Of a stretch of DNA of 45,926 nt, positions 1,274 to 41,760 are shown piece by piece. The translations under genes were made by a program, and so were the position numbers. The notes under the pieces were generated by a model that did not search any database, was not told the DNA's origin, and was given only the letters and a program-made list of their open reading frames with translations. Positions within the stretch are counted from its first letter, which is position 1. Every line of letters starts with the position of its first letter. Source of the stretch: a virus. The DNA lies in the UHGV virus genome UHGV-0253013; one strand, given 5' to 3'.

Positions 1274-1788
1274 TGATGATGGGGTGGTTTATGAGAGATT
1301 TAATTAATTGGCATGACCATTTCTACTACGAACCTGACACGGGGAAGATACGATGGAAGTATTCCCCGAGACACAGTATAAACGCCGGAGACGAAGCCGG
1401 TAGCCCGAGTAAGAGGGGCTACATCTGTATCGTCGTCATAGGGGTTAGTTACAGGGCTAATCGTATCGCGTGGGAGATGTATAACAATGACCGTTTAGGT
1501 CCTGATGATGAAGTAGACCATATAAATCACATCCTGGATGATAATCGTGCATGCAACCTTCGGAAAGTATCGCGTACTGATAACAACCGAAACGCATCTC
1601 GGAGAAAAGATAACAAGTCGGGTCTCACAGGTGTGCACTGGAACGCACGGGCAGCTAAATGGAAAGCATGTATATTTGTTGGCGGTAAACTTATATTCCT
1701 AGGCCATTATGGCAATATATTTGACGCTGCTTGTGCACGGAAATCCGCGATTGTTCGCTACGGCTTTCATGAGAATCACGGAGGTTAG
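1270..1788 (+). CDS. HNH homing endonuclease with C-terminal AP2-like DNA-binding domain (paralog 1 of 3)
   Basis: EVDHINHILDDNRACNLRKV HNH motif; C-terminal SGLTGVHW...KWKA...LG.Y...AA.AR AP2-like fold. Start codon uncertain (run of Met at 1270; MRDL at 1291). Confidence 0.75.
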   Translation: MMMMGWFMRDLINWHDHFYYEPDTGKIRWKYSPRHSINAGDEAGSPSKRGYICIVVIGVSYRANRIAWEMYNNDRLGPDDEVDHINHILDDNRACNLRKVSRTDNNRNASRRKDNKSGLTGVHWNARAAKWKACIFVGGKLIFLGHYGNIFDAACARKSAIVRYGFHENHGG

Positions 1789-2320: not shown

Positions 2321-2512
2321 ATGAAACATGAATATGACCGCAAACCAGCACGCGACATCGTACCTGGCGATATGATTTTCAACGTCAAGACGCGCCAGCC
2401 TGTTGCCGTTGATACGGTGTTCGTAGAGTCGAACGGTAAACTGGTTATCGAAGACGTAACAGGAAACGTTACCGCGTTCGGGCGTAAAGAGCTGGTTCTG
2501 GTGGCCAAATGA
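2321..2512 (+). CDS. hypothetical protein
   Basis: ORF with AGGAATTGAG upstream; stop overlaps the helicase start (ATGA). Confidence 0.4.
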   Translation: MKHEYDRKPARDIVPGDMIFNVKTRQPVAVDTVFVESNGKLVIEDVTGNVTAFGRKELVLVAK

Positions 2513-4974
2513 ATAAATTCACTAGAAGGCCTTATCAAAAGCTCATGACCTCGTTCATGCTGCAACACCCGCGCTGTAATATCTGGGCCAGTATGGGCAG
2601 CGGCAAGTGCCTGAAACGCGGGACTGAAGTTATTATGTTTGACGGTACGACCAAGAAAGTAGAAGACGTCATCGTCGGTGACGTGCTTATGGGGCCGGAT
2701 TCAACGCCTAGAAATGTACTGTCTCTCGGTAGAGGCCGGGAGATGATGTACGAGGTTAAACCGCGAAAAGGAGAGTCGTATACGGTCAACGAAAGCCATA
2801 TATTATCCCTGCGAACTACTACAGGGATCGCAAAAGGTTCATGGCCAGATGATACCGTTTTCGACATAAGCGTCCGCGACTGGCTTAAGTTGCCGAAATA
2901 TGTAACCGGGCCTAATGGGTATCTTAAGGGTTGGCGGGTACCTGTCGATTTTACAAGGAAAGAGCAGGACGAGGCTTTATTGCCTCCGTACCTTATGGGG
3001 TTATGGCTGGGCGACGGTACTTCGTCGTCTGGGGCCATAACATCAGGAGAGAACGAAAAGGAAATAAGGGCGTATCTTGAGTCGTACGCAGCACGTAATG
3101 GGATGCAAATACGAAAAGAAGGACTTACATGGAGTATATCTTACGGCAACACAGGTCATAAGAAGCACGGGTTTACACACGCGCTGAAATCGGCGGGTGT
3201 CCTGAACAATAAGCATATACCGCATAATTACAAATGCGGCGACCGGCGACAGCGTTTAGAATTGCTGGCGGGGCTTCTGGATAGTGATGGTTACTGCGAT
3301 TTGTCTAAAGCAGGTTTTGACTGGATTTCGGTAAGCGAGCGACTCGCTGATGATTTTTGCTATCTATGCCGTTCTCTTGGTTTCGCCGCTTACAAGAAGA
3401 AAACTCGTAAGCGTTGCGCAAACACTGATGTTTGGGGTGACTACTTTAGCGTATCAGTATCGGGCGATTTTTCTGAGGTACCTTTCGTGCGCGGACGCCA
3501 CCAGAATTTACCGAAGCGTAATATTAATAAGAACGTGCTTAACGTTGGGATAGAATCCATAACCCCGGTCGGCGTAGATGACTATTTTGGCTTCACTATC
3601 GACGGTGACAGTCGGTTTTTATTGGGGGACTTCACTGTCACGCACAATACAAGCTCAACGTTGTGGGCTCTCAACAGACTGTTCCGTAATGGGCAACTTA
3701 ATGACGACGACCGAGTGTTAATTCTGGCTCCTTTACGTGTTGCGTCCGGCACGTGGCCCGCGGAACAGGCACGTTGGAACTTCCCGTGTTTGCATGTTGT
3801 AGACGCAACTGGTTCAGAGAAGCGCCGCATCGCGGCGCTGGAGTCAGATGCCAACGTGGTGTGCACGAACTACGAAGTTATTGAGTGGCTGATTGACTAC
3901 TACGGCAAAGACGACTGGCCTTTTACGGTTATCGTTGCCGATGAAAGCACGAAGCTCAAATCATTCCGTAGCCGTTCCGGCGGCAGCAAGCGTGCAAAGG
4001 CGCTTAGCAAAGTGGCGTTCGGTAAGGTTAAGCGTTTCATCAACCTTACCGGTACGCCGTCGCCGAACGGCCTCAAAGACTTGTGGGGGCAGAACTGGTT
4101 TATCGACGGCGGAGAGCGCCTGGGGTCATCGTACACCGCATTCACAGACCGCTGGTTTAACTCGGTACAGAAAGGCAAATCAGCGATGGCACGTGAATAT
4201 CACGCACGCCCGGGCGCAGATAACGAGATTCACCAGAAGATGAAGGACATTAGTCTCACGATTGACGCCGCCGAGTGGTTTGGGTGTGAAGCGCCGATTA
4301 TCGTACCGGTCGAAATCGACCTGCCGAAGAAAGCGCGGCAGGCGTACATCGATATGGAGGAGAAGCTATTCGCGGAACTGGAGAGCGGAGAAGTTGAAGC
4401 GGCTAACGCCGCGGCGAAGACCTCAAAGTGCTTGCAGATTGCTTCCGGTGCCGTATATGTATCGGGGCCGGACGGCGAAGCAACGAAAGACTGGGAGAAA
4501 GTGCACGACACGAAACTTGATGCGCTCGAGTCGATTGTTGAGGAGTTACAGGGTGCGCCGTTACTGGTAGCCTATCAGTTCAAGCATGAACTGGAGCGCA
4601 TCCTTAAGCGATTCCCGCAAGCACAGGCATTTGCCAAAGGTGCTAAGGGTAATAAGCAGATGGAAGCGTGGAACCGTAGGGAGATACCTATGCTCCTGAT
4701 ACACCCAGCCTCCGCAGGCCACGGACTGTCGCTACAACACGGCGGACACCACATGGCCTTTATGAGTCAGGGGTGGAACCTGGAACATTATCTGCAGGTT
4801 ATCGAGCGTATAGGCCCAGTAAGGCAGATGCAATCCGGATACAAACGGTCTGTATTCATTTATCAAATAATAGCACGAGATACTCTTGATGAAGTTGTCG
4901 CCTCTCGTACAGACGAGAAAAGGTCTGTACAGGACGAACTACTTAATTATATGAAGCGCAGAGGTAAGAAATGA
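2509..4974 (+). CDS. SNF2/DEAD-like helicase, intein-containing
   Basis: Walker A MGSGK|...|TSS is split by the insert; downstream VIVADEST (DExx-like) and INLTGTPSPNGL (motif III-like). Confidence 0.8.
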   Translation: MNKFTRRPYQKLMTSFMLQHPRCNIWASMGSGKCLKRGTEVIMFDGTTKKVEDVIVGDVLMGPDSTPRNVLSLGRGREMMYEVKPRKGESYTVNESHILSLRTTTGIAKGSWPDDTVFDISVRDWLKLPKYVTGPNGYLKGWRVPVDFTRKEQDEALLPPYLMGLWLGDGTSSSGAITSGENEKEIRAYLESYAARNGMQIRKEGLTWSISYGNTGHKKHGFTHALKSAGVLNNKHIPHNYKCGDRRQRLELLAGLLDSDGYCDLSKAGFDWISVSERLADDFCYLCRSLGFAAYKKKTRKRCANTDVWGDYFSVSVSGDFSEVPFVRGRHQNLPKRNINKNVLNVGIESITPVGVDDYFGFTIDGDSRFLLGDFTVTHNTSSTLWALNRLFRNGQLNDDDRVLILAPLRVASGTWPAEQARWNFPCLHVVDATGSEKRRIAALESDANVVCTNYEVIEWLIDYYGKDDWPFTVIVADESTKLKSFRSRSGGSKRAKALSKVAFGKVKRFINLTGTPSPNGLKDLWGQNWFIDGGERLGSSYTAFTDRWFNSVQKGKSAMAREYHARPGADNEIHQKMKDISLTIDAAEWFGCEAPIIVPVEIDLPKKARQAYIDMEEKLFAELESGEVEAANAAAKTSKCLQIASGAVYVSGPDGEATKDWEKVHDTKLDALESIVEELQGAPLLVAYQFKHELERILKRFPQAQAFAKGAKGNKQMEAWNRREIPMLLIHPASAGHGLSLQHGGHHMAFMSQGWNLEHYLQVIERIGPVRQMQSGYKRSVFIYQIIARDTLDEVVASRTDEKRSVQDELLNYMKRRGKK
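2608..3648 (+). mobile_element. intein (347 aa) with LAGLIDADG homing endonuclease domain, inserted in the helicase P-loop
   Basis: Starts with Cys directly after GSGK; ends ...VTHN followed by Thr (+1 nucleophile). Block B-like NESHILSL. Two LAGLIDADG motifs: LMGLWLGDG and LAGLLDSDG. Excision restores GSGKTSS. Confidence 0.8.
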
Positions 4975-11093: not shown

Positions 11094-11590
11094 TGCATCG
11101 GGTCCCAAATTCGTGGAAACGTAGTTTCGTAGTTCGCGTATATTTTCAGGAAACTATCCAGACAATCCCCGTAACAACCGTACAAATCTGGAAGATTGTT
11201 AATCAGGCACTGGTTCTCTTGGTCCTGGAACGGCGATTTCTCGGCGGTTGCCGTGAAGGTAATCGTCCAGTTAATGCCGTCTTCGGTGGACTCCGCGATG
11301 GTGGATGTAATTGTTACCTGGTAATCCTCAATACCCATGCCGAAGTCGTGCGCCATCCAGAAACTCGACGCACCACCGTCGACTTTCTCAAGGAACGACA
11401 GAAACGCCTGCCGACCCAGCGCCGATGTAATCAGGGTTACGCTTATCGGGAACACGTCGTAATACGTGTCACGGCCCTGACGCACCCCGCCACCGGCTAA
11501 ATCTACACTCCAGACGTTGTTACGTCTGGTCATTGAGTAGCCTTTTGATACCACCGGCTTTAAACTTGCTGGAAATTTCAAAGAAGACAT
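11090..11590 (-). CDS. minor/distal tail protein (M-like position)
   Basis: Synteny only: follows the tape measure gene on the same strand. Confidence 0.4.
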   Translation of the reverse strand: MSSLKFPASLKPVVSKGYSMTRRNNVWSVDLAGGGVRQGRDTYYDVFPISVTLITSALGRQAFLSFLEKVDGGASSFWMAHDFGMGIEDYQVTITSTIAESTEDGINWTITFTATAEKSPFQDQENQCLINNLPDLYGCYGDCLDSFLKIYANYETTFPRIWDPMQ

Positions 11591-11625
11591 GGCAAGATAC
11601 TCCTATTAGTTTAGGAGATACTAAC

Positions 11626-12276
11626 ATGATGCCAACCGAAAAAGTAGCCAAGAGCATGTGGCTGCGTGCGAATTATCCTGCGAACAAAAGCAGCAAAACT
11701 AAGCGTGCAACTATATGCGATTTTGGCATAAATGACGCCGATTATGTGGTTAGCCCCAAGATAAACGGCAAACGTGAGACGTGTCTGGCGTACGCTACAT
11801 GGAGAGGGATGATCCAACGTTGTGTGGACGCCGAGTATAAAAACAAAAGGCCTGCGTACAGGGATGTAACTGTGTGGCATGGGTGGCAAAGGTTTATGTC
11901 CTTCCGTGGATGGTGGATTTGTAATTATGTGGAGGGATGGGAGCTAGATAAGGACATATTCTCTGGTATTAATAAGGAATACAGCCCTACCACTTGCGTT
12001 TTCATCCCGAAGTGGTTGAATGTTTTCCTGCAGGAAAAGAAAAATAGTGGAACACCTACAGGTGTTTTTTATGAAGAATCTAGAGGTAAATTTAAAGCCT
12101 CAGTTAGCTATGGTAAAAAAACTATTAATCTAGGACGTTTTGAAACTCAGGAAGAAGCGCTAGATGCCTACATTGCTGAAAAGATAAGGGTGGCGGAATC
12201 AAGAAGATGTGAGATAGAGGCGATAAGGGAAGGTATGTTCGACCGCGTTATCGCCCTGATAAAAGAGGGACGTTAG
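11626..12276 (+). CDS. AP2-domain homing-endonuclease-like protein, opposite strand inside the tail module
   Basis: ATG ATG at 11626 preceded by AGGAG; C-terminal GVFYEESRGKFKASVSYGKKTINLGRFETQEEALDAYIAEK is AP2-like; N-terminal domain not assigned. Confidence 0.5.
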   Translation: MMPTEKVAKSMWLRANYPANKSSKTKRATICDFGINDADYVVSPKINGKRETCLAYATWRGMIQRCVDAEYKNKRPAYRDVTVWHGWQRFMSFRGWWICNYVEGWELDKDIFSGINKEYSPTTCVFIPKWLNVFLQEKKNSGTPTGVFYEESRGKFKASVSYGKKTINLGRFETQEEALDAYIAEKIRVAESRRCEIEAIREGMFDRVIALIKEGR

Positions 12277-12289
12277 CTCATAGGCTGGA

Positions 12290-12320
12290 AAAAAATAAAG
12301 GCCCCTCAGGGCCTTTCTGT
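12290..12320. terminator. bidirectional terminator
   Basis: A-run, GGCCCCTCAGGGCC hairpin, then TTTCTGTT; between the rightward AP2 gene stop (12276) and the leftward tape measure stop (12323). Confidence 0.55.
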
Positions 12321-12322
12321 TA

Positions 12323-14326
12323 TCACTTAAAACCAGGTGCGTTTCTTGTAGCTTTCCTCGCTTTCGAAATTCTGCTGTTGCTGTTCTGCAAAGAGGCAGC
12401 CACCTGCTCTTCTATGATGATGCGCAAACGGCCTTCGTCATCCTGTTCGGTGGATACATTGCCGATTTGCGCGCTGGTATTATTTATGATGCTGATATTA
12501 GCTGGGCCACTATTTCCGCTATTATTACCGTTTAACTGCTGCCGTGTTTGGCTTGCATTGGTCGCCCTGCCAGAACCCGCCATCTTGATAATCTCAGGGC
12601 CGCGTTCACCAACCAGGTAACTACCACCAGCGTTCATTTGTCCGCCTTGCTCACGCGCGCCGCTAATCTTGGCGATGTTCGCCACCCCTGCCGCGACAGC
12701 CAGACCTGCGGCAACTGGAGCGAGTGCCGGACCGACAATAGGAATGGCAGCAGTTGATTTATAGGCTTCGATAGCGGCCGTGTAAGTGGCAATAGTCGCT
12801 TGCGTTATGGCGAACGCTTTGTACGCAGCGGACGTCTCCCCTAGTGCGGATTTAGCATCTGCTGCCATGCTGCCGAATGCGTCGGCGGTGGCGTTGGCCT
12901 GTGCAATATTGCTCTGTTCGTTCAGGTTACGCACCGCATTAGCGTATTCTTCTTCACTGATTAGTTTCTGTTTAAGGAAATCGTCCAGTTGCTTAAGTTT
13001 GGCGTCATTCTGCCGTTGGATTTCCTCAAACTCTGTGCCACCCAGCGCCTGTAGTTTCTCCAGATATGCATCAGCATTGTTATACAGTGCATCTCGTTGC
13101 GCCTGAAACTCCGCCATGATGTCACTTTTCGACTTCTCGTAGTCAGCATCGCTTACAAGTTGCTTGTCGTGGAACTCCTGTAACTTAGCCAGTTTCTGTT
13201 TCTCTTTGGCGTCTATCCGTTCTAACTCCGTTCCGGTGTTTGTGTCAATTTGAGCTATAAACTGGTCTGCGGCTTTCTGTGCGCTTTGCTGCGCGCGGGC
13301 GTCGGCACGGGCTTGCGCATCTGCGCGTTTCTTAGCTGCGGTAGCAATACGATTCTGCCTGTCTATCTCCTTCTGTGCTCTATCAGCCTTATCCTTTTCA
13401 TATGTCTTCTCGGATTGCTCCACCCCTTTCCGCTCGGCTGCGCGGGTCTTTTCCTCCACACCAAGGTAGTTAAGTTCATTTCGCAGTTTATTTATTTCCA
13501 TCTGCGCTTCTGGCGTTTTGGCCTTTATGCTGTCTAGGTAGGCAACCAGCCCCTCTCTAGCACCAGGAACCCCAGCAGCGATTGCTTTCTGAGCAACTTC
13601 AATGCTGCGTAACTCTTTGGCGGTCAACCCCGCAGCTTCCGCAGCAGATTCGTACTGGAAAGCCACGGCCCCGGCAGCGTCCCCGCCTTGGGCTATTTGT
13701 GATGCGGCAAGGTTGGTAGTCAACTTCTGAAACAGAGACTGGGCTTTCGTTACCTTATCAATAGCTTCAACAATCTTATCCGCGGTGGAGTTAGCCTGTA
13801 CGGCGGTTGCTTCTAGTGCCTTATTAAGAAATGCCATCTTCTCTGCTGTTGTCGCCCCAACAGCGTCCAGTTTTTCCAGTGCGTCATTCATGTCATACAC
13901 ACCGGGTGTGGCCTCGTTGAGAGCGTCATCAAGGAACTTAGTCGCTTCCTCCAGCTGTTTAGCGGTATCTGTCGAGTTACTCAAAGACGCATACAGCGCT
14001 CCGCCGATTACTGTGGCGATAGTCAATACCGTTCCCGCAATTGGATTGAATGCGGACACCAACTGACTACCTTGTTGCGTGAAAGCCGTGAGGGCTGACT
14101 GCCCCCCTTGGATTTGCACGATAAAGTCCTGTACCTGATACCCGGCGTTACCTATGGACGCCCGCATCGCGTTCATCTTCGGCGTTGCCGCGGAGGTGGT
14201 ATCCGTTAGTTTCTTTGTACTAGAATCCGCTTTCCCGGCGGAACTACTAAGGTTATCTAACTGCTTTGCTGCTTGCTCCGCTCCAGTTGCCTGGACTCGT
14301 ACCATTAAACTCGCGGTGTCAGCCAT
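12323..14326 (-). CDS. tail tape measure protein
   Basis: 667 aa; long Ala/Gln/Lys/Glu-rich coiled-coil region, hydrophobic segments, Gly-rich C-terminus; follows the chaperone pair. Confidence 0.75.
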   Translation of the reverse strand: MADTASLMVRVQATGAEQAAKQLDNLSSSAGKADSSTKKLTDTTSAATPKMNAMRASIGNAGYQVQDFIVQIQGGQSALTAFTQQGSQLVSAFNPIAGTVLTIATVIGGALYASLSNSTDTAKQLEEATKFLDDALNEATPGVYDMNDALEKLDAVGATTAEKMAFLNKALEATAVQANSTADKIVEAIDKVTKAQSLFQKLTTNLAASQIAQGGDAAGAVAFQYESAAEAAGLTAKELRSIEVAQKAIAAGVPGAREGLVAYLDSIKAKTPEAQMEINKLRNELNYLGVEEKTRAAERKGVEQSEKTYEKDKADRAQKEIDRQNRIATAAKKRADAQARADARAQQSAQKAADQFIAQIDTNTGTELERIDAKEKQKLAKLQEFHDKQLVSDADYEKSKSDIMAEFQAQRDALYNNADAYLEKLQALGGTEFEEIQRQNDAKLKQLDDFLKQKLISEEEYANAVRNLNEQSNIAQANATADAFGSMAADAKSALGETSAAYKAFAITQATIATYTAAIEAYKSTAAIPIVGPALAPVAAGLAVAAGVANIAKISGAREQGGQMNAGGSYLVGERGPEIIKMAGSGRATNASQTRQQLNGNNSGNSGPANISIINNTSAQIGNVSTEQDDEGRLRIIIEEQVAASLQNSNSRISKARKATRNAPGFK

Positions 14327-14327
14327 T

Positions 14328-14588
14328 CTAATCGTCCTCGTTACGGCCTTCGAACAGTGCGTCGAGGCCCATTATTAAGTCTACCTCAAGCAACGAGAAC
14401 GGCTGTTTATGCAACTCTGCGTACGCTGTAAGGTGGTGATATTGGAGCATTTCCCTTGGTATTAGCACATTATTGCGACTTACAAACTTCAATGCGTAGT
14501 ATTTATCCATTATTTTCATCATATCACTCGGGCATTCCGGCGGGGTTTCCTCCGGCTCCTTCGGTACGGGCAACCCCATAGCCACCAT
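14328..14588 (-). CDS. tail assembly chaperone, T-like part (possible -1 frameshift extension of the upstream gene)
   Basis: By my hand translation this frame is open upstream to about 14705, overlaps the end of the 14678..15094 gene by about 28 nt and is offset by -1. Confidence 0.4.
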   Translation of the reverse strand: MVAMGLPVPKEPEETPPECPSDMMKIMDKYYALKFVSRNNVLIPREMLQYHHLTAYAELHKQPFSLLEVDLIMGLDALFEGRNEDD

Positions 14589-14677
14589 AGCAGCCTTGTG
14601 CCCGTCGGCGATGGAGTCGAACTCACGTCTCCTTTGCCGTATAACCCAGCGATACCTAGCATATTCGTAAAGCGCTT

Positions 14678-15663: not shown

Positions 15664-16794
15664 ATGGCCCAGAAGAAAATAACCGACGAACAGTTACAGG
15701 AAGAATTGAACGCCGGGATGAAGAATGTAGACATCGCCCGTAAATACGGCATCTCAGACCGCGTTATTCGTATCCGTAAAGCAAAACTAGCTAAGAAAGG
15801 CGTAGGCCACGGACGCGACGTTAGCCACCTCGTACCAGACGGCTACAAGATTAAGGGCACGTCGTCACTTGTGGACGAGTTCGGCAACACTAAGTTGCAA
15901 TGGGTTAAGACCGACACCGACGCCGAACGTCAGGTCGAGTTGATGAAAGCCGTAATAGAAGGTATGAAGTCAGAGATTACGCCGGTTGCGCCTGTTAAAG
16001 CGACTCGCGCCAAACGCAACGATAAACTACTCAATCTTTACACGGTATCTGATTTTCATCTCGGTATGCTGGCTTGGGCCGACGAGAGCGGCGACGACTG
16101 GGATATGAAGATTGCGGAAGACCTGTTCTCCCGTTGGTTCGATGCTGCATTTCAGAAAGCACCAGATGCAGCAACTGGGGTTATTAACCTGCTGGGTGAT
16201 TTCGCGCACTTCGATAGTCTGGTTGCCGTTACACCCGCAAGCGGTCACGCCCTTGACGCTGACACTCGCTATCAGAAACTGGTGCGCTACATGATTCGTA
16301 TGGTCCGCCGTGTGGTGGATATGGCTCTGGTTAAGCATAAAAATGTTCGCTTGCTTATCGTACAAGGGAACCACGACGAAAGCGGAATGATTTGGTTGGC
16401 GGAGATGTTCAGTACGCTGTACGACAACGAGCCGCGTGTGTTCGTAGATACGTCGCCGGATGTCTACAAGATGGTGCAACATGGCAAAACGACTCTGTTC
16501 TTTACACACGGGCATAAATGCCGGTTTGAGGTGGTCGAACCCATTATGATAGCTAAGTTCAGAAAAGCATTTGGCGAAAGCGAGTACAGTTACGCGCATG
16601 TAGGACATCTCCACCATCAAAAGATTGTAGAAAGTAGGAATATGGTAGTGGAACAGCATCGCACTCTCGCGGCGAAAGATGCATATGCTTCTCGCGGCGG
16701 GTGGATGTCTAAGAGGTCCGCTAATGTCATAACCTATAGTTCAGAGTTCGGGGAAGTAGGTAGGCTTTCAATCTCACCGGAGATGCTAAGATGA
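15664..16794 (+). CDS. HTH domain fused to a calcineurin-like metallophosphoesterase (SbcD/Mre11-like or class III phosphodiesterase-like)
   Basis: N-terminal DIARKYGISDRVIRIRKAKL HTH-like; MPE motifs SDFHLG, GDFAHFD, QGNHDE, FTHGH, HVGHLHH in canonical order. Confidence 0.65.
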   Translation: MAQKKITDEQLQEELNAGMKNVDIARKYGISDRVIRIRKAKLAKKGVGHGRDVSHLVPDGYKIKGTSSLVDEFGNTKLQWVKTDTDAERQVELMKAVIEGMKSEITPVAPVKATRAKRNDKLLNLYTVSDFHLGMLAWADESGDDWDMKIAEDLFSRWFDAAFQKAPDAATGVINLLGDFAHFDSLVAVTPASGHALDADTRYQKLVRYMIRMVRRVVDMALVKHKNVRLLIVQGNHDESGMIWLAEMFSTLYDNEPRVFVDTSPDVYKMVQHGKTTLFFTHGHKCRFEVVEPIMIAKFRKAFGESEYSYAHVGHLHHQKIVESRNMVVEQHRTLAAKDAYASRGGWMSKRSANVITYSSEFGEVGRLSISPEMLR

Positions 16795-17261
16795 AGTATC
16801 TTGATGTTTCAAAACAATTTAAATACTGCCCTGAGACGGGGCAGGTTACCAGGATATCTACTGGTGCTGAGGTTGGTACGGTTGGTGTAAGAGGTTATTT
16901 GTGCTGCGGTATGGGTGGTAAAACAGTGTATGTCCACCGCATAGCATGGTGTCTTTATAATAAATGCAACTTAGACAGGAAAACTCAAATAGACCACATA
17001 AACCATAACAGGCTAGACAATAGGATAGAAAATCTACGCGCCACCGACAATACAGGGAACAGTAAAAATAAAACTATGCGAAAGATAAATAAATCCGGGG
17101 CCACAGGTGTAAGTTTCCACAAAGCCGCGGGTAAGTGGCGCGCGTTTATAAAAGTTAACTACAAACAAGTACATTTAGGGCTTTACGACGATTTTGATGT
17201 AGCGGTTGCCGCGCGTAAAGCCGCTGAAAGTAAATACGGTTTCCATGAAAACCATGAGTAG
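16791..17261 (+). CDS. HNH homing endonuclease with AP2-like domain (paralog 2 of 3)
   Basis: QIDHINHNRLDNRIENLRAT HNH motif; C-terminal SGATGVSFHKAAGKWRAFIKV...YGFHENHE closely parallels the 1270..1788 and 41257..41757 products. Confidence 0.8.
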   Translation: MKYLDVSKQFKYCPETGQVTRISTGAEVGTVGVRGYLCCGMGGKTVYVHRIAWCLYNKCNLDRKTQIDHINHNRLDNRIENLRATDNTGNSKNKTMRKINKSGATGVSFHKAAGKWRAFIKVNYKQVHLGLYDDFDVAVAARKAAESKYGFHENHE

Positions 17262-17274
17262 GGGAAAGTGATTT

Positions 17275-17505
17275 ATGACTTCAAAATACAACCGCACAAT
17301 GACAAACGCTCACGGCAGCACTATGACAGTAGACGTTTATGATGTGCTACGTGCTTTCGACATCCGCGACCCTGCGTTACAGCACGCATTGAAGAAGCTA
17401 TTGTGTATGGGCCTTCGCGGACACAAGGACACCGGAACAGACTTAGCGGAAGCAATTGAAAGCCTGGAGAAGTTACGGGAGTATAGAAGCAATATCGACG
17501 AGTAA
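17275..17505 (+). CDS. hypothetical protein
   Basis: ORF after the HNH gene, followed by a terminator. Confidence 0.4.
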   Translation: MTSKYNRTMTNAHGSTMTVDVYDVLRAFDIRDPALQHALKKLLCMGLRGHKDTGTDLAEAIESLEKLREYRSNIDE

Positions 17506-17506
17506 G

Positions 17507-17530
17507 AAAAGGCCCCGAAAGGGGCCTTAG
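17507..17530. terminator. bidirectional rho-independent terminator
   Basis: AAAAGGCCCC-GAAA-GGGGCCTT hairpin then TTTTA; between the rightward island and the leftward major tail gene stop (17533). Confidence 0.6.
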
Positions 17531-17532
17531 TT

Positions 17533-21556: not shown

Positions 21557-21715
21557 TTTTAAGCTCCTCAGGATGCGATGATTTTAGCGGCACGAAGTTG
21601 TGCCGGTAAGGCGTTAAGTTGAGTGCCTACCGCGTTAACCGCAGTCTGTGCGGACGTAGCAACCGCGGCAAGCCTTTTCCGGTCTTAGACATAATTTACC
21701 TCTTAGTAAATGAAA

Positions 21716-21735
21716 AGAGGGACCGAAGTCCCTCT
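21716..21735 (-). terminator. terminator hairpin downstream of the capsid gene
   Basis: AGAGGGAC-CGAA-GTCCCTCT hairpin; on the minus strand it is followed by TTTCATTT; 17 nt below the capsid stop. Confidence 0.5.
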
Positions 21736-21751
21736 CGATTATAGCTTAACC

Positions 21752-22801
21752 TTAAGACCCGACACCAGTTACCAGGAAGGCGATCGGTACGTGCTTACGC
21801 TCAACCACACGGTTCCAGTTGGAGGCGTTCGCCAGGTCCTGCCAGGAAGCAGAGCGCGGGGTAGTCTCGGTGCCGTTGCCGGTGATTACTGCGCTGGTGA
21901 AGCTGTAGCCCAGTGGGTGCAGCAACCAGGTCTTACGGGTCCACAGGGTTTCTACGCCGCCGCCGTTACCACGGGACGCTTCGCGCTCGTATTCCAGCGG
22001 GTTGGACGGAGAACCTTCGCCATAACCGATAGCGCCGTTACCGAAGATAATGGAGATGAACTTACGGCTCGTGGCAGTGCCGACTACGGTCATGCTGTCG
22101 TCAACAATCACGCGGTAGCCCTGGTAGGTGGCAAACATGGTGTTGTTGTCAGCGTCTTTGATGAAGTCAATAAGCTGCTGCTTACGCGCCTGTGCATAAA
22201 CGAAGCTGTGCATGGCGATAGCGCCCAGCACTTCACCGCCGTTGCCCATCAATGCATCGCCCATAGTCTGGGTAGCGTCGATGAACGCACCTGCGTCGAA
22301 ACCAAGAGTAGCGGACACGTCGATTACCATGTCGTTCTGCTCGTGGTACGCGTCGGTAGCGGCTACGTTGTCATTGTACAGACCAAGCGCAGTAGCAATC
22401 AGACGGCGTTGTGCCTGACGCTGCCAGAAGTTATCCAGGCGAGAAGCCACGGATTGCAGCGGATTCTGACTGGTCAGTTCGACAGTCAAATCCGCCTGAC
22501 CAAAACCTTCGTTCAGGTACGCAACGCGCGCCATCATCTCACCAGTCTGAACGTTACGAGGGGTTGCGATGTCCTGGTACACGTCGTTCGAGTAGTTAGG
22601 CTCGATGGAGGTGTCAATCGCTTTCCAGAAAGGAATATTAGCGATGTTGGACGGACCACGAGCAATCTCAGCAGCGTATGGAGTCGGGGTCAGAATACCG
22701 GACTGGAAGAACGCGGTTTTTTCTACCGGGTCCTCTGTCATATAAGACGCCAGGACCGGGATGTTGCCAGTTACGATATCGCCGATAGTGGTAATTGCCA
22801 T
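21752..22801 (-). CDS. major capsid protein
   Basis: 349 aa; GAGGAAA RBS; follows the scaffold gene and precedes the decoration and connector genes; terminator directly downstream. Confidence 0.7.
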   Translation of the reverse strand: MAITTIGDIVTGNIPVLASYMTEDPVEKTAFFQSGILTPTPYAAEIARGPSNIANIPFWKAIDTSIEPNYSNDVYQDIATPRNVQTGEMMARVAYLNEGFGQADLTVELTSQNPLQSVASRLDNFWQRQAQRRLIATALGLYNDNVAATDAYHEQNDMVIDVSATLGFDAGAFIDATQTMGDALMGNGGEVLGAIAMHSFVYAQARKQQLIDFIKDADNNTMFATYQGYRVIVDDSMTVVGTATSRKFISIIFGNGAIGYGEGSPSNPLEYEREASRGNGGGVETLWTRKTWLLHPLGYSFTSAVITGNGTETTPRSASWQDLANASNWNRVVERKHVPIAFLVTGVGS

Positions 22802-22803
22802 TA

Positions 22804-23505
22804 TTATTTCCTCAGGGCTTTAAGTTGCCGTTCAAATTCGGCAGGGTTCGATTTATACAGGGCTAAACGCTCTGCTTCACTCATGTCTTTAAACGCTGGT
22901 GCGGCCCCGCCGCCTTTGCTACCGGAAGCCCCGCCGCCGGAAGCTGCATTTGCTTTAATCAAATGCGAAAACGCTTTGTGTTCGCGCAGGTATTTGCGGA
23001 ACTGTTCCGGGTCAGTCGTGATTACGTTACCGTCTGCGCCGACAAACTTAGTAACCACGTCATCGCCTTCGAACTCAGTCTTAACGAACGGCGCAAGAAT
23101 GTCCACTGCTTCCGGGGTAATAAAGTCACCTGCGAAAGAGCCTAACACCGCTTTACGTTCGCTGCCGAGGATGCGCTCTGCCATTCTGGAGATGCGACCA
23201 TCTTTCTCGGCCAGCACCGGGTCATACTGGCTACGAATCGTTTTTTCGAACTCGTCCATCTTACCGGCGGCTTTTAACGCCTCCTGGTGTGCGCGCTGCC
23301 GTTCTTCTTCGGCCTCTTTTGCTTTACGGGCGGCTTCTTTCTTCTCCGCCAGCAATGCTTCCTGATTGGCCTTAAGCCCGGCAACTTCTTTCGCAATCAG
23401 CGCCTGAACTTCTTCAGCGGTGAACATTTTTGGCGCATCACCGCCGCCAGATTTATCTTCTGCTCCAGCTTCTTCCTGGAACGGATAGCGTAAAAAACGA
23501 TTCAT
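22804..23505 (-). CDS. scaffolding protein
   Basis: Ala/Glu/Lys-rich helical protein (EEERQRAHQEALKAAGK) upstream of the capsid gene. Start uncertain: track start 23559 is TTG; internal ATGs at 23505 and 23427. Confidence 0.55.
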   Translation of the reverse strand: MNRFLRYPFQEEAGAEDKSGGGDAPKMFTAEEVQALIAKEVAGLKANQEALLAEKKEAARKAKEAEEERQRAHQEALKAAGKMDEFEKTIRSQYDPVLAEKDGRISRMAERILGSERKAVLGSFAGDFITPEAVDILAPFVKTEFEGDDVVTKFVGADGNVITTDPEQFRKYLREHKAFSHLIKANAASGGGASGSKGGGAAPAFKDMSEAERLALYKSNPAEFERQLKALRK

Positions 23506-23587
23506 AGTCAGTATGTCCCCTGGACGTTTGAATCCGGGCCACCCGGATTTACATGTCAAGAATAAATTATTCCAACATGCAAGGCAA

Positions 23588-26031: not shown

Positions 26032-26193
26032 ATGAAATTAGTAAAAAGAATTACCGTAAACATTAACACAAGTTCGAAAAACGGAGACAAACGTAAGTTC
26101 CGCCGTAAAATGCGCCAAATCGCTAAACTCGACTACATCTTCGGGGAAACGATTGCACTCGCAGTAGGCGCCGCACGCAACTGGAGGCGTTAA
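26032..26193 (+). CDS. small basic protein (53 aa)
   Basis: ATG at 26032 preceded by GGAG; first gene of the rightward insert upstream of the YhhQ-like gene. Confidence 0.4.
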   Translation: MKLVKRITVNINTSSKNGDKRKFRRKMRQIAKLDYIFGETIALAVGAARNWRR

Positions 26194-26194
26194 T

Positions 26195-26659
26195 ATGATG
26201 TACTTTGTGTACATAGGCGCGATATGCGCCGCCAACTTTTCGGTATCCGTTTTCGGTCCGTGGGCAACTCCTATAAACGCTTTTGTTCTTATCGGTCTTG
26301 ATTTTGTGATAAGAGATAAGTTGCATGAAAGAATCGGTGTGCGAAAAATATTTATACTCATAGTTGTTGCGGGGGTAATAAGTTACGCCATTAACCCTGC
26401 AACGGGTAAGATTGCCTCTGCAAGTGTGGTGGCATTCGCATTTGCTGCGTTGGTAGACGCGATTGTGTACCAGTTGCTTATTAACCAAAAGTGGCTAGTA
26501 AAGTCTAACGTCAGTAACACAGCGGCATCCGCTGTTGATTCGTTTATTTTTCCTTTAATCGCCTTTGGGGCTTTCATGCCGCTTGTAGTTCTCGGGCAAT
26601 TCGCCGCTAAAGTTATCGGGGGCGCTACCTGGTCACTCCTGTTGAGGAAAGTTAAATGA
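26195..26659 (+). CDS. yhhQ: YhhQ-like membrane protein (7-deazaguanine precursor transporter family), short form
   Basis: Multi-TM protein; segments KSNVSNTAASAVDSFIFPLIAFG and ASVVAFAFAALVDAIVYQLL resemble remembered E. coli YhhQ motifs (no alignment run); adjacent to a DpdA-like gene. Confidence 0.55.
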   Translation: MMYFVYIGAICAANFSVSVFGPWATPINAFVLIGLDFVIRDKLHERIGVRKIFILIVVAGVISYAINPATGKIASASVVAFAFAALVDAIVYQLLINQKWLVKSNVSNTAASAVDSFIFPLIAFGAFMPLVVLGQFAAKVIGGATWSLLLRKVK

Positions 26660-27390
26660 CAGTACACTACCACGGCGGCCCTATTTGGGGTGGGGGTGAA
26701 CTTATAAAAGCGTTGTACAGAGGGGGAGGTGCTCTGGTGTCCTATGCGCGTCCAGACCAGATACGAAAGATAGCCGCCATGAGATGTAAATTAGTACTGG
26801 ATAACGGTGCTTTTTCAACGTGGAAGAAAGCCCCGGAAAACATAGACTGGAGTGCACACTGGGCAGGATATTATGATTTTGTTGGTGAGTGGTTCAGCCG
26901 TATTGAGTGGTTCATAATACCTGACGTTATCGAAGGTTCCGAGGAGGAAAACGACGCGTTAATAGAAACTGTGCCGGATTGGTTAATGCCCAAGGCTGTC
27001 CCGGTGTGGCATAGTGACGAGAGTATAAGAAGACTGATAAAACTATGCAGGAAGTTCCCTCGAGTTGCTATAGGCTGCTGCGGCCCACACAGGGCTATAC
27101 GTTCTAAGTCGTGGGAAAAAAGAATGGATCAGGCGTTTAATGCGGTTTACAGAAACCGGAAACTAGATGTAAAACTACACGGACTTAGAATGCTGGATGG
27201 AAGGGCGTTAAGCCGCTACCCTTTTGATAGCGCAGACAGCACAAACGTAGCTATAAATGTACCAAAAACGAAGGCAAGACTGCCTAACATAACCGATAAA
27301 CTACACCGCACAGCTATAATGCGGCACACGATAGAAATGGTGAAACCACCCTCGGTTGGTGAATGGTTATTTAAAACTAAGGCCCCATAA
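26656..27390 (+). CDS. dpdA: DpdA-like transglycosylase (candidate 7-deazaguanine DNA-modifying enzyme)
   Basis: 244 aa, translationally coupled to the YhhQ-like gene. Call rests on a remembered resemblance to short phage DpdA/TGT-like proteins (YHGGPIWGG, LVLDNGAFS, FIIPDVIEGSEEEND) and on context. Confidence 0.5.
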   Translation: MTVHYHGGPIWGGGELIKALYRGGGALVSYARPDQIRKIAAMRCKLVLDNGAFSTWKKAPENIDWSAHWAGYYDFVGEWFSRIEWFIIPDVIEGSEEENDALIETVPDWLMPKAVPVWHSDESIRRLIKLCRKFPRVAIGCCGPHRAIRSKSWEKRMDQAFNAVYRNRKLDVKLHGLRMLDGRALSRYPFDSADSTNVAINVPKTKARLPNITDKLHRTAIMRHTIEMVKPPSVGEWLFKTKAP

Positions 27391-27406
27391 CGGGGCCTTT
27401 TTCTTT
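27379..27406. terminator. bidirectional terminator between the DpdA-like and portal genes
   Basis: AAGGCCCC-ATAA-CGGGGCCTT hairpin followed by TTTCTTT; both convergent stops lie in or beside it. Confidence 0.55.
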
Positions 27407-28874
27407 ACTCCTGCTGTTGTGCCGACTGCGGAATCTCCCCCTCAACCTGAGTAACAGCACCTAACGGCATCGGCGCGTCTTCGATAGCGTTCTGAATGTC
27501 CTCGTCAGTCCAGTCAATTACACCTGCCTTGCGCAACGCAGCATAATAAGCGGTCGCTGGCAGCAGACCGGCGTTAATATCTGCCATCCACTGAGCACGG
27601 TCCTGCGCTGTCATCGGTTGCAGGAAGAACTCCATATTCAGCTTGAACTCAATCTCTGTGTCTCCACGCAATCCTAGCATCGCCGCTACCCAGCGCAACG
27701 CATCAGTATACGCCATGCTTACGTTACGTGCGATTGTCGCCATAACGGATGTATCAGCACCGCGTTGCAGACGGGCTGATTCGGCGGTGATTTGCTGCGT
27801 CGGGGTGATAAGCTGAGCGCCAATCTGAATGGCCTGATTCTCTTTATCCAGCATGTTCTGTTTGGCGAGGTTATTTTCTCCCGCCTGAACCAGAAACGCA
27901 TTGCCGCCGTAGCCAATGTTATGGCCTGAGCGCGACCCCATGCGCACGCCGTGAGGGTTGGCTTCTTTCCACTGTTCCATGCTCATGTTCTCGCCGGGGG
28001 CTATGAACAGAGTGGGCTGGCCTACAACGAAGCTGGACTCCTCATTGTCTGCGCTGTTGCGGAAATGCCCAATATTAAGCTCAGCCAACGGCAGCAAAGG
28101 TGCATCGTCAATGGTTGCATCGTTGTTGCTTGCACCAATGAACGTGAACGGGATTTTGCCGCGTAACTGTTCGCCAAGTTCCGGGAATATTTCGATTACT
28201 TCACCCTGAGCGCAACCTTCAGCGTCGAAGCGGTAAATGCGCTGGCGGTAGCGCCCGTCAATCAAATCTAGAACGCGGTATTGCTCACCGAACTTTGTTT
28301 CGAACTCTGCACCCGGTTCTGAGTATTCCCATACCTCACGCAACACAACCATAGTCACGCGGTTAACTGAACCGACGCGAGTCAGTCGCCAGTTGATGAT
28401 GTTCTCTGCGGTATAGAATACGATGACCGGGTTTAATAATCCCGCGTTCTGTTCGGCTGCCGTTGCTGCGGCGGTCTCTGGCGCATCAACCAGCAATCCA
28501 CCACGACCAACCGAGTCAATCTCCATTAGCGTATCCTGCGCGTGCTGCCACAGCCCGACACCGGAACCGTCCGTATTGCGCAACAGGTATTCCAGTTCAG
28601 GAGGGATAATCTGTTCAGGGTCTTTGCGCATCACTGACCCCACCACCCCCGCCAGGGTACGTTTAGTGAAGTTGTAGCAGATAGCACCATTCTCGTATTC
28701 TTCCTGTCGCTGTGCTGCGTAGGTCGGGTCAGGCTCGTTCTTCCCGACGTTGCGCAGGTAGCGAATAAGGTCGCCCTCCAGCGAGTGGCGTACCTTCTGC
28801 CATTTATCGAAGTGGTGCAGCCATTCCCGGTGTTTTGTCTTAACACCCTGATTCTGACCGTTCATAGTTAACAT
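27405..28874 (-). CDS. portal protein
   Basis: 489 aa ORF on the structural strand directly after the terminase region; size and synteny. Confidence 0.65.
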   Translation of the reverse strand: MLTMNGQNQGVKTKHREWLHHFDKWQKVRHSLEGDLIRYLRNVGKNEPDPTYAAQRQEEYENGAICYNFTKRTLAGVVGSVMRKDPEQIIPPELEYLLRNTDGSGVGLWQHAQDTLMEIDSVGRGGLLVDAPETAAATAAEQNAGLLNPVIVFYTAENIINWRLTRVGSVNRVTMVVLREVWEYSEPGAEFETKFGEQYRVLDLIDGRYRQRIYRFDAEGCAQGEVIEIFPELGEQLRGKIPFTFIGASNNDATIDDAPLLPLAELNIGHFRNSADNEESSFVVGQPTLFIAPGENMSMEQWKEANPHGVRMGSRSGHNIGYGGNAFLVQAGENNLAKQNMLDKENQAIQIGAQLITPTQQITAESARLQRGADTSVMATIARNVSMAYTDALRWVAAMLGLRGDTEIEFKLNMEFFLQPMTAQDRAQWMADINAGLLPATAYYAALRKAGVIDWTDEDIQNAIEDAPMPLGAVTQVEGEIPQSAQQQE

Positions 28875-29029
28875 AGATATAGACCCTCGGGTATGGGTGT
28901 CAAAAGCCTAATAAAAATTAGGTTGCAAGTCACCAGAAACTCGCTACTGCGAGTTTTACTTGCACCGGGCTGGCGGTCAATATATCTTATCATTAAGCAG
29001 ATAAAAATGAATTGTTGGAGGGGATACGT

Positions 29030-30409: not shown

Positions 30410-30420
30410 GCCCCTTTTTA
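30399..30420. terminator. bidirectional terminator
   Basis: AAAGGGGC-ATAA-GCCCCTTT hairpin then TTTACTT; between the rightward gene stop (30409) and the large terminase stop (30422). Confidence 0.55.
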
Positions 30421-41226: not shown

Positions 41227-41256
41227 TAGCCCATACCAAACGAGAGGGTACGCGAC

Positions 41257-41757: not shown

Positions 41758-41760
41758 ACC

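Follow-up and report, generated by a model that had tools for sequence, protein, structure and literature searches.

Why does the genome of an E. coli phage carry three related nuclease genes, each beside a conserved gene, and how did they come to be there? The window (i.e., the whole stretch of 45,926 nucleotides analyzed) is a complete, circularly permuted, Kagunavirus-like (Guernseyvirinae) genome. Within its 45.9 kb, three related HNH-AP2 nuclease genes occur together with three other homing-type elements, and this homing-type selfish DNA amounts to ~4.9 kb, roughly 10% of the genome. The initial annotation attributed the set to repeated invasion at conserved targets. The reading that we favor, with a probability of roughly 85%, is that the three ORFs are free-standing I-HmuI-like HNH (HNN)+AP2 homing endonuclease genes (HEGs) that were independently acquired by this Kagunavirus-like E. 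coli siphophage. All three of the ORFs called in that annotation are present:

1270 to 1788, plus strand: HNH1, a 172-amino-acid (aa) HNH-AP2 endonuclease
16791 to 17261, plus strand: HNH2, the focal gene, a putative 156-aa I-HmuI-like HNH (HNN) + AP2 free-standing homing endonuclease
41257 to 41757, plus strand: HNH3, a 166-aa HNH-AP2 endonuclease

Pairwise alignment of the three proteins revealed a relationship far above chance (BLASTP identities of 43%, 38%, and 44%, with E values of 6e-38, 4e-31, and 6e-40), and the proposed HNH core, DHI[ND]H...N.R..NLR, was found in each of them as part of a common core, DHI[ND]H...NR..NLR...N. All three match Pfam HNH_3 (PF13392; 38.7, 30.4, and 38.7 bits; gathering cutoff, 24.8), and each belongs to phrog_99 "HNH endonuclease" (E values of 1e-55 to 2e-62). 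The proposed C-terminal motif FH[EK]NHG holds for two proteins (FHENHG and FHKNHG), but the focal protein ends in FHENHE. Pfam AP2 (PF00847) did not reach its gathering score of 33.3 in any of them, with 19.8 and 18.2 bits in two ORFs and no match, even below the threshold, in 41257-41757; the AP2-like domain claimed for the C terminus is nevertheless borne out by the model fold and the family profile. We relied on the family profile and the predicted structure because the focal protein alone gave no significant match to the PDB (phmmer). The profile matched I-HmuI (E value, 4.7e-8) and the AP2 domain of WRI1 (E value, 4.9e-7). For the AF2 model of the focal protein (pLDDT, 93.8), the top PDB match in Foldseek is I-HmuI (1u3e; E value, 2.9e-5; probability, 1.0; 91 columns), and the AP2 domains of WRI1, TEM1, and AtERF1 were also matched (probability, 0.98 to 1.0). 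This predicted structure contains the beta-beta-alpha-metal fold of the HNH_3/I-HmuI-like class and an AP2 region (strands E107-110, E115-122, and E125-132 and helix H135-148) in which, as in solved AP2 domains, a three-stranded sheet lies on one helix. In the profile alignment with 1u3e, focal residues D68/H69, N81, and N90 correspond to D74/H75, N87, and N96 of I-HmuI, and these D-H, N, and N residues are invariant in 66 homologs, including all three window proteins. We conclude that the three ORFs encode I-HmuI-like HNH (HNN) nucleases that end in an AP2 DNA-binding domain and whose catalytic residues are intact. Together with the predicted fold and purifying selection (dN/dS against orthologs, 0.04 for HNH2 and 0.11 for HNH3), these residues suggest that the proteins have nuclease activity.

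The three genes had been described as paralogous, and they are indeed members of one family, but they appear to have been acquired independently, without duplication inside this genome. Had they been born here as recent true paralogs, their common architecture, motifs, and PHROG would be expected; however, their protein identity is only 38 to 44%, no nucleotide similarity was detected among the three genes by blastn, and each has an ortholog of 94 to 97% nucleotide identity at the same locus in other phages. Independent acquisition follows from this contrast between close orthologs at the same sites elsewhere and distant siblings within the window, which effectively refutes intragenomic duplication, an origin that we regard as exceedingly improbable.

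Cassette junctions were derived from blastn HSP ends and the raw sequence. The three HNH-AP2 genes form discrete cassettes of 484 to 520 bp, each missing from four or five of the five complete relatives: one relative carries the HNH1 cassette (1270-1789), one carries the HNH2 cassette (16791-17274), and none carries the HNH3 cassette (41248-41760). The numbers for the other elements are similar, with one carrier each for the AP2-only cassette (11561-12326) and the intein and none for the Hef-like cassette (28878-30420). Relatives show clean junctions for all of the cassettes and the intein, and intact empty sites exist for all five cassettes. The cassettes are built to be harmless; they are placed exactly at gene junctions, where the upstream stop and Shine-Dalgarno (SD) sequence are used or overlapped and the downstream gene is given a new SD and start context. 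The neighbors are those originally named (DNA polymerase, tape measure, tail tube/minor tail, portal, and terminase). The combination of all six elements occurred in no other record among those examined. Presence/absence variation among the relatives is thus clear, whereas its absence had been named in the initial annotation as a refuting outcome, and repeated homing invasion at conserved targets is supported by this variation with its clean junctions, by identity islands, and by a co-converted flank at HNH2. The presence of six homing-type elements precisely between conserved genes is a well-supported, real, and ordinary feature of this phage group. Members of the HNH-AP2 family also occupy at least six further sites across the five relatives.

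The other elements that had been reported (i.e., an AP2-only protein, an endonuclease at 29030-30409, and an intein) are likewise present, and each is variable among relatives:

11626 to 12276, plus strand: AP2-only putative endonuclease, phrog_953-type, 216 aa, in a 766-bp cassette (11561-12326)
29030 to 30409, plus strand: "Hef-like" homing endonuclease, 459 to 465 aa, in a 1,543-bp cassette (28878-30420)
2608 to 3648, plus strand: LAGLIDADG intein, helicase residues C34 to N380, in an SNF2-type helicase gene (2509-4974)

The AP2-only cassette, which has its own SD and a terminator-like hairpin, is flanked by the tape-measure gene and, on the opposite strand, by the tail gene that comes next. 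The gene product matches Pfam AP2 below the threshold (23.3 bits) and phrog_953 "HNH endonuclease," and the D-H dyad is missing at the aligned position; the gene is found in 7 INPHARED records (dN/dS, 0.27). The Hef-like cassette lies in antisense orientation between the genes for the terminase large subunit and the portal; in empty sites, 8 to 12 bp separate these two genes. Its product matches a DUF4379 zinc finger in Pfam (31 bits; above the cutoff), CapR below the threshold, and, weakly, an MTES_1575 PD-(D/E)XK-type REase (23.7; cutoff, 38.2), and it carries the PHROG labels phrog_559/3339 (HNH/homing endonuclease). The earlier label "DUF559-type" has to be dropped, since DUF559 (PF04480) gave no Pfam match even at an E value of ≤5; relatives annotate the orthologs as "Hef-like homing endonuclease." Five INPHARED records contain this gene, including Salmonella phage Jersey (92.7%) and E. 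coli phage MC04 (99%). The intein endonuclease is real, with Hint and LAGLIDADG domains (Hom_end_hint, 2.4e-21; LAGLIDADG_3, 7e-7) and an in-frame absence from four relatives. It interrupts the Walker A motif of the SNF2 helicase between GSGK and T, its boundaries being C34 and H379-N380, followed by T381; in fEg-Eco19, phage 26, SCS92, and ORH_001, residue 33 is joined directly to residue 381, in frame. Of the 175 INPHARED records with this intein, 168 are Salmonella phages. The idea that an HNH-AP2 gene of fEg-Eco19 might split the helicase at the intein site was rejected, because tblastn placed this gene just upstream of an intact intein-less helicase.

The most informative locus is that of the focal gene:

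15664 to 16794, plus strand: calcineurin-like phosphoesterase/"DNA repair exonuclease" gene, phrog_704, the upstream neighbor of HNH2
16503 to 16794, plus strand: HEG-linked haplotype (co-conversion tract) of ~290 bp at the 3' end of the phosphoesterase gene
16795 to 17278 (or 16791 to 17274), plus strand: 484-bp HNH2 cassette, as defined by the empty site of phage 26
17275 to 17505, plus strand: conserved 76-aa ORF downstream of HNH2, directly following the phosphoesterase gene in empty-site genomes

The HNH2 ATG overlaps the TGA of the phosphoesterase gene (ATGA), and the placement of the cassette is ambiguous by 4 bp, with ATGA at both ends. In the empty site of phage 26 (MZ832314), the phosphoesterase stop directly overlaps the start of a 231-nt ORF; the cassette brings its own SD (GGGGAAAG) and ATG context for the 76-aa ORF. 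HNH2 is found in 39 phage records of INPHARED at 96.5 to 97.3% identity, 29 of which are Salmonella phages (Jerseyvirus where checked) with flanks of only ~60 to 85% identity. Compared with Salmonella phage S100, the cassette is 93 to 98% identical and the flanks are 43 to 85% identical. None of the 71 IMG/VR loci found via the phosphoesterase protein, which served as an HEG-negative panel, contained HNH2. Over the last 279 bp of the phosphoesterase gene, genomes with the HEG (SCS92 and S100) differ at 7 to 8 nt and 0 aa, and genomes lacking it differ at 65 to 82 nt and 8 to 14 aa, a split that is not present over the 5' 849 bp of the gene. The ~290-bp haplotype is strictly linked to HNH2: it occurs in the HEG-carrying genomes of both genera and in 0 of 57 HEG-negative loci, all of which have another common consensus at this 3' end. 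The phosphoesterase gene is probably the target gene of HNH2, and the position of the tract suggests that the nick or cut site lies in or near 16503-16794. In other relatives, the slot 3' of the phosphoesterase gene is occupied by a 201-nt ORF, by a kinase-phosphatase gene plus a 555-nt ORF, or by another AP2-type gene, and part of this turnover may come from ordinary recombination, either illegitimate or homologous.

HNH1 adjoins the DNA polymerase gene, which spans the ends of the window:

44998 to 45926, plus strand: 5' part of the DNA polymerase gene (upstream neighbor of HNH1), continuing at 1-1273 (circularly permuted)
1 to 1273, plus strand: 3' part of the DNA polymerase gene, with a stop that overlaps the HNH1 start

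The 520-bp HNH1 cassette lies between the polymerase stop and a small downstream ORF, the start of which (ATGCTA.) is duplicated at the right junction; translation of HNH1 may truly begin at the ATG near 1291. HNH1 was found in only 3 INPHARED records (94 to 95% identity), and in the comparison of cassette and flank identity all carriers are close relatives. The last 50 bp of the polymerase gene are 94 to 98% identical in HEG-carrying genomes versus 76 to 80% in HEG-negative genomes, and this divergent flank of only ~50 bp hints weakly at co-conversion. Because the polymerase of fEg-Eco19 has 1,051 aa and phrog_93 matched the polymerase C terminus, an intein was sought in the polymerase of the window, but none was found in its uninterrupted 733 aa.

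At the third locus, next to helicase-primase/phrog_3127, the HNH3 cassette (41248-41760; 513 bp) takes the place of 10 bp in the intergenic spacer that precedes the phrog_3127 gene. Among INPHARED records, it matches at the nucleotide level only Salmonella phage SETP7 (Jerseyvirus; 95.9%), and none of the E. coli phage records of that database; the cassette is 92 to 100% identical to that of SETP7, and the flanks are 55 to 79% identical. Neither co-conversion nor target-site divergence was seen upstream of HNH3, where HEG-negative genomes are 96% identical up to the junction. TPH05A has an unrelated 258-nt ORF at this junction.

The HNH2 and HNH3 cassettes are therefore islands of 92 to 100% identity in Salmonella Jerseyviruses, a different genus, where the flanks are 55 to 85% identical. 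The window genes show the features by which HEGs are recognized, namely, sporadic presence and absence, lateral transfer (HNH2 and HNH3), and a co-conversion tract (HNH2). The same loci bear on whether the HNH proteins instead serve the phage itself, as packaging proteins associated with the terminase, as nickases in replication or repair, or as regulators of the AP2 type. Packaging machines can include HNH proteins as required parts (Kala et al. 2014, cited in PMC9825357), a packaging role is suggested in one Kagunavirus paper for its HNH genes, and strong purifying selection would fit a host-phage function. However, the neighbors of the three genes are the polymerase, phosphoesterase, and helicase-primase/phrog_3127 genes and not the terminase gene, each HNH gene is absent from most close relatives, which are viable isolates, and the record of phage 26 gives its genome as circularly permuted. 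The family is, moreover, I-HmuI-like HNN + AP2 rather than HK97 gp74-type, and such a terminase-associated packaging HNH was rejected for want of terminase adjacency and for its absence from most relatives. A domesticated function is accordingly very improbable.

A further explanation is that the genes are inactive or decaying relics, the patchiness of which stems from ordinary recombination and from the shuffling of modules at hypervariable junctions, with no current nuclease-driven homing. The several unrelated inserts in the phosphoesterase slot, the ORF of TPH05A at the HNH3 junction, and the postinvasion degeneration model for Xanthomonas phage HNN-AP2 genes (PMC2248197) are in its favor. 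Yet none of the three ORFs is truncated, their catalytic residues are invariant, dN/dS is 0.04 to 0.11, and HNH2, at 96.5 to 97.3% identity in 39 genomes of two genera and with a linked co-converted flank, has the pattern of active or very recent homing. We consider relics unlikely. Some observations run against the homing reading: HNH3 has no visible tract, the HNH1 flank is only ~50 bp, the phosphoesterase slot also holds unrelated nonnuclease genes, and sequence alone leaves AP2 under its Pfam threshold.

Under the homing reading, the N-terminal beta-sheet and the AP2 domain at the C terminus would let the enzyme, during mixed infection with a related phage lacking the cassette, recognize a long site in or beside the conserved neighboring gene (for HNH2, the phosphoesterase gene at its 3' end). 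The His-Me finger would then nick or cut the recipient DNA, and recombinational repair on the HEG-carrying template would copy the cassette and some flank into the recipient. The carrier's own allele would be spared through the sequence divergence of the co-converted flank. A single-strand nick or a double-strand cut would each suit this scheme, and both the precise site that is targeted and the carrier allele's immunity are likewise presumed. More tentatively, at somewhat less than even odds, these HEGs are active at present and pass between the phage genera of Salmonella (Jerseyvirus) and E. coli (Kagunavirus); HNH2 would act at a site within the phosphoesterase gene, as far as ~290 bp from where it is inserted, and take a foreign gene segment along. 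If so, co-conversion driven by HEGs would promote cross-genus mosaicism to a measurable extent, and perhaps also interphage competition, in Guernseyvirinae.

Little of this is new at the level of gene identity, because GenBank already annotates these genes as homing endonucleases. Labeled orthologs, with 93 to 99% nucleotide identity at the same loci, include UTQ72495.1 ("HNH homing endonuclease"; SCS92), AXC39504.1 (Salmonella phage S100), AGX84715.1 (SETP7), and the "Hef-like homing endonuclease" of phage Jersey. The Kagunavirus and Jerseyvirus literature annotates the HNH genes only routinely, and we found no biochemical characterization or cleavage data in it. The main value of the present findings lies in annotation and comparative genomics, and they leave the current picture of phage homing endonucleases unchanged.

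Among known systems, I-HmuI of Bacillus phage SPO1 (PDB 1U3E) is the best structural and profile match to the window proteins. In both, an N-terminal beta-sheet region that binds DNA precedes a His-Me finger of the HNN type, and the aligned identity is ~25%, but I-HmuI is intron encoded with C-terminal helical/HTH DNA-binding modules, whereas the window proteins are free-standing with a C-terminal AP2 domain. I-HmuI reportedly nicks one strand of the intron-less polymerase gene, according to its 2004 structure paper. The defined empty and occupied sites are ready substrates for the uncharacterized HNH-AP2 enzymes as possible sequence-specific nickases. The free-standing HNN/HNH-AP2 genes of Xp10/OP1/Xop411, T5, T1, Rtp, RB16, and RB43 have the same two-domain architecture and the same conserved boxes (HR.AW, DNR, NLR, and N) as the window proteins. 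Several such genes can occur per phage genome, at different sites and variably between relatives (PMC2248197; PMC2993671, Table 5). In the Xanthomonas phages, conserved flanks were not found and a sequence-independent spread was suggested (PMC2248197). Those genes belong to other phage groups; for Guernseyvirinae, the present analysis defines the sites of insertion, their empty counterparts, and one co-conversion tract. SegF, SegG, and MobE of T4 are free-standing HEGs between conserved genes, as cited in PMC2993671. According to the same secondary account, T4 Seg/Mob genes spread in mixed infection as the HEG-less genome is cut and flanking markers are co-converted, the cut site sometimes being distant. 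Seg proteins are GIY-YIG and Mob proteins are HNH without AP2, in contrast to the HNH + AP2 products of the window, and homing is experimentally demonstrated for Seg/Mob and predicted for the window genes. The asymmetric 290-bp tract of HNH2 matches the intronless homing pattern described there for T4 Seg/Mob and, being HEG linked in two phage genera, represents a clean natural case of co-conversion.

The DNA polymerase open reading frame (ORF) begins at 44998, reaches the end of the 45,926-bp window, and resumes without a break at 1 to 1273; the window is thus a complete, circularly permuted siphophage genome. Its nearest relatives in megablast searches were the Kagunavirus/Guernseyvirinae group of Escherichia coli phages (~88 to 92% identity), with no record covering the window at full length. 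PHROG and Pfam scans revealed the expected arrangement, with genes for a DNA polymerase, SNF2-type helicase, tailspike and tail proteins, tape measure, phosphoesterase, tail tube/minor tail protein, head proteins, portal, terminase, helicase-primase, and exonuclease. The initial annotation had proposed three paralogous HNH-AP2 genes plus other homing-type nuclease genes, inserted next to the polymerase, tape measure, major tail, portal, and terminase genes. The three ORFs lie exactly where they had been placed, and the neighbors are as described. We recorded window segments without a counterpart in each of five complete relatives (TPH05A, fEg-Eco19, phage 26, SCS92, and ORH_001). The gaps in these genomes match the candidate elements with nearly base-level precision, and the comparison with relatives lacking each insertion yielded presence/absence variation for every element.

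Candidate homing elements: gene, window segment, presence among the five complete relatives, and INPHARED records (identity)
HNH1, ORF 1270-1788; segment 1270-1789; 1/5 (TPH05A); 3 records, E. coli phages (94-95%)
Intein, inside the helicase gene 2509-4974; segment 2609-3654; 1/5 (TPH05A); 175 records, 168 from Salmonella phages (90-98%)
AP2-only gene, 11626-12276; segment 11561-12326; 1/5 (fEg-Eco19); 7 records (91-96%)
HNH2 (focal gene), 16791-17261; segment 16796-17283; 1/5 (SCS92); 39 records, 29 Salmonella and 10 Escherichia phages (96.5-97.3%)
465-aa Hef-like gene, 29030-30409; segment 28878-30420; 0/5; 5 records, including phage Jersey ("Hef-like homing endonuclease") (92.7-99%)
HNH3, ORF 41257-41757; segment 41248-41760; 0/5; 2 records, both Salmonella phage SETP7 (GenBank and RefSeq) (95.9%)

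Pairwise alignments of the three HNH-AP2 proteins gave 38 to 44% identity (BLASTP E values of 4e-31 to 6e-40). All three match Pfam HNH_3 above the gathering score and belong to phrog_99; Pfam AP2 was below threshold in two and without a match in the third. The motifs originally reported are essentially right, except that the focal protein ends in FHENHE rather than FHENHG. A 66-member family alignment, drawn from a search of 5.8 billion proteins, showed no variation at D68, H69, N81, R83, N90, or N93 (focal numbering). The profile of this alignment matched I-HmuI (1u3e), a solved HNH homing endonuclease (E = 4.7e-8), pairing focal D68/H69, N81, and N90 with D74/H75, N87, and N96, and also matched the WRI1 AP2 domain (E = 4.9e-7). 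An AlphaFold2 model of the focal protein (pLDDT, 93.8) had I-HmuI as its top PDB match (E = 2.9e-5), with AP2 domains from plants and apicomplexans next in rank. Because profile and model both match I-HmuI and AP2 domains, the predicted architecture combines an I-HmuI-like HNN nuclease with an AP2 domain at the C terminus, a reading that had been made from motifs and is borne out by the predicted fold as well.

The intein is real: the helicase contains Hom_end_hint and LAGLIDADG_3 domains, and the element spans residues C34 to N380, inside the Walker A motif after GSGK. In four relatives, residue 33 is joined in frame to residue 381. The "DUF559-type" label given to the 465-aa gene was not reproduced in Pfam, which returned a DUF4379 zinc finger, a sub-threshold MTES_1575 restriction-endonuclease-like match, and CapR; PHROGs and GenBank relatives name this gene a (Hef-like) homing endonuclease. 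The AP2-only protein, a putative nuclease, matches phrog_953 ("HNH endonuclease"), has no HNH_3 match in Pfam, and reads ELDKD at the position of its siblings' D-H dyad.

At the empty HNH2 site of phage 26 (...GGGATGACTTCAAAATAC), the TGA stop of the phosphoesterase gene and the ATG of a 231-nt ORF overlap. In the window, the identical ATGA opens the HNH2 gene, and 484 bp further on, a new Shine-Dalgarno (SD) sequence (GGGGAAAG) and a second ATGA restart the 231-nt ORF. At empty sites of the polymerase locus, the downstream ORF start (ATGCTAAG...) overlaps the polymerase stop; in the window, a second copy of this start lies behind GGAGG at the right end of the HNH1 cassette. HNH3 occupies 513 bp in place of ten spacer bases; it relies on the resident SD sequence, and its cassette provides GGAGAA for the downstream gene. 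The AP2-only and 465-aa cassettes lie on the strand opposite to the structural operon around them and are transcribed against it. Both close with a terminator-like hairpin; GC-rich hairpins followed by T runs occur at 12290-12322 (AAAGGCCCCTCAGGGCCTTTCT) and 30395-30420 (AAAGGGGCATAAGCCCCTTTTT), respectively. Each cassette is organized in a way that would preserve the expression of both neighbors.

Other insertions were seen at these junctions. The interval from the phosphoesterase gene to the tail tube/minor tail gene (window 16795-17532 and its equivalent in the compared sequences L001, L004, L005, L008, and L012 to L075) is a hypervariable slot, ~255 bp long when empty and ~446, 740, 1068, or 1250 bp long in other genomes, with contents that include a 201-nt ORF, an AP2-only-type gene, or a kinase-phosphatase together with a 555-nt ORF. 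In TPH05A (L004, 11385-11641), an unrelated 258-nt ORF (phrog_34383) occupies the exact HNH3 junction, likewise using the resident SD sequence and giving a new one to the downstream gene; this junction may be a recurrent insertion point.

Sliding identity profiles showed high-identity islands at two of the genes. HNH3 is 92 to 100% identical to its SETP7 counterpart, with flanks at 55 to 79%, and HNH2 is 93 to 98% identical to that of Salmonella phage S100, with flanks at 43 to 85%. The HNH2 island takes in ~290 bp of the phosphoesterase gene upstream and ends sharply at the cassette 3' end, and the multigenome comparison linked this tract to the cassette. In the last 279 bp of the phosphoesterase gene, genomes with the homing endonuclease gene (HEG+; SCS92 and S100) differ from the window by 7 to 8 nt and 0 aa, versus 65 to 82 nt and 8 to 14 aa in five genomes without it (HEG-). 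This split is absent from the 5' 849 bp (78 nt in SCS92 and 211 nt in S100, versus 79 to 116 nt in the five HEG- genomes), which therefore follow genus rather than HEG status. The HNH2 cassette was missing from all 71 IMG/VR phosphoesterase loci; the Kagunavirus-like loci are 71 to 85% identical to the window in the 3' tract and 85 to 92% in the 5' part, and 57 HEG- loci share a consensus in which, from 16503 onward, most third codon positions depart from the HEG+ haplotype. The linked tract is the pattern expected from co-conversion during homing, which points to an HNH2 target in or near the phosphoesterase 3' end, with the carrier allele presumably protected by its divergence. HNH1 shows a much shorter equivalent (last 50 bp of the polymerase gene, 94 to 98% identity in carriers versus 76 to 80% in noncarriers), and no such tract was found upstream of HNH3. 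The dN/dS ratios of HNH2 (0.04), HNH3 (0.11), and the AP2-only gene (0.27) indicate purifying selection. That the HNH-AP2 genes are inactive relics shuffled by ordinary recombination is unlikely, given their intact catalytic residues, low dN/dS, and cassette-linked flank.

Approximately 440 records match the 6 kb around HNH2, so the gene is present in roughly 1 in 11 relatives. For each of the three HNH-AP2 genes, other genomes carry a near-identical orthologue at the matching locus, while identity to its siblings is only ~40%; the three therefore belong to one family and were acquired independently. Their origin by duplication within this genome is effectively refuted by the same comparison. 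Members of the family occupy six or more additional sites across the five relatives, including after the helicase gene, before it, before the polymerase gene, and in the early region. The TPH05A orthologue of HNH1 (PQ429079.1, 17784-18302; 94% identity) lies in an unannotated 516-bp gap after the DNA polymerase gene; because of four gap characters near its 5' end in alignment with the window, its start may be different or damaged. In phage 26 (MZ832314.1, 38992-39465), downstream of the helicase gene, the sole annotation is a 141-nt "HNH endonuclease" coding sequence (CDS), and tblastn detects full-length (155 aa) family similarity; this is either a misannotation or a frameshifted, decaying copy.

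Intronless homing is the best-supported reading of the HNH-AP2 genes (probability of roughly 0.85). The absences in relatives, the clean junctions, and the HNH2-linked tract agree with the repeated invasion initially proposed. The enzyme would nick or cut a cassette-less coinfecting genome site specifically, and recombinational repair off the carrier template would copy the cassette, along with the adjacent 290 bp in the case of HNH2. As I-HmuI is reportedly a nickase, according to its 2004 structure paper, we infer that nicking followed by replication-fork collapse is a plausible step here. A domesticated role in packaging or replication is very improbable, with both gene position and dispensability against it.

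Between the head-morphogenesis and portal genes lies a two-gene cassette (26035-27408; ORFs 26195-26659 and 26656-27390, + strand), one gene encoding a Vut_1/YhhQ-like transporter (Pfam, 5.8e-9) and the other, which resembles a DpdA-type 7-deazaguanine DNA-modification module, matching phrog_887, "queuine tRNA-ribosyltransferase" (E = 9.5e-84). None of the five relatives has this cassette, and 50,697 phage records contain no nucleotide match to it; at the protein level, the closest match (67%) is in Pectobacterium phage PEAT2, which has the same gene pair. This cassette may be the most unusual feature of the genome. Segment 42291-42711 (filled by two small ORFs, 42287-42502 and 42514-42717, one matching phrog_8602 and the other without a match) also has no nucleotide counterpart in the five relatives. 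For the center of the tape measure gene (12510-14658), blastn returned nothing in TPH05A or fEg-Eco19, and the protein has 667 aa versus ~757 to 778 aa in relatives, representing a divergent or shortened allele adjoining the AP2-only cassette. A 551-aa ORF (21710-23365, + strand), antisense to the major capsid (21752-22801, - strand) and scaffold (22804-23559, - strand) genes, has no match in Pfam or PHROG; it is probably spurious, though its length is conserved, and the ORH_001 annotation lists a matching 1656-nt ORF as a CDS instead of the capsid gene.

The homing elements are real and were interpreted correctly in the initial annotation, but they are ordinary. Kagunavirus and Jerseyvirus papers that we found mention HNH genes merely in passing, and orthologues of all six elements are annotated in GenBank as homing endonucleases or inteins. 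It is well established that a phage genome can carry several free-standing HNN/HNH-AP2 genes (PMC2248197; PMC2993671, Table 5): three Xanthomonas oryzae phages carry six to eight free-standing HNH-family endonuclease genes each, with intact HNN-AP2 as one group (PMC2248197), and T5, T1, Rtp, RB16, and RB43 carry genes with the same conserved boxes (PMC2248197; PMC2993671, Table 5). The "hef-like" genes are listed as a separate category (PMC2993671, Table 5). To these systems, our analysis adds base-level insertion sites, empty-site references, and a cross-genus co-conversion tract.
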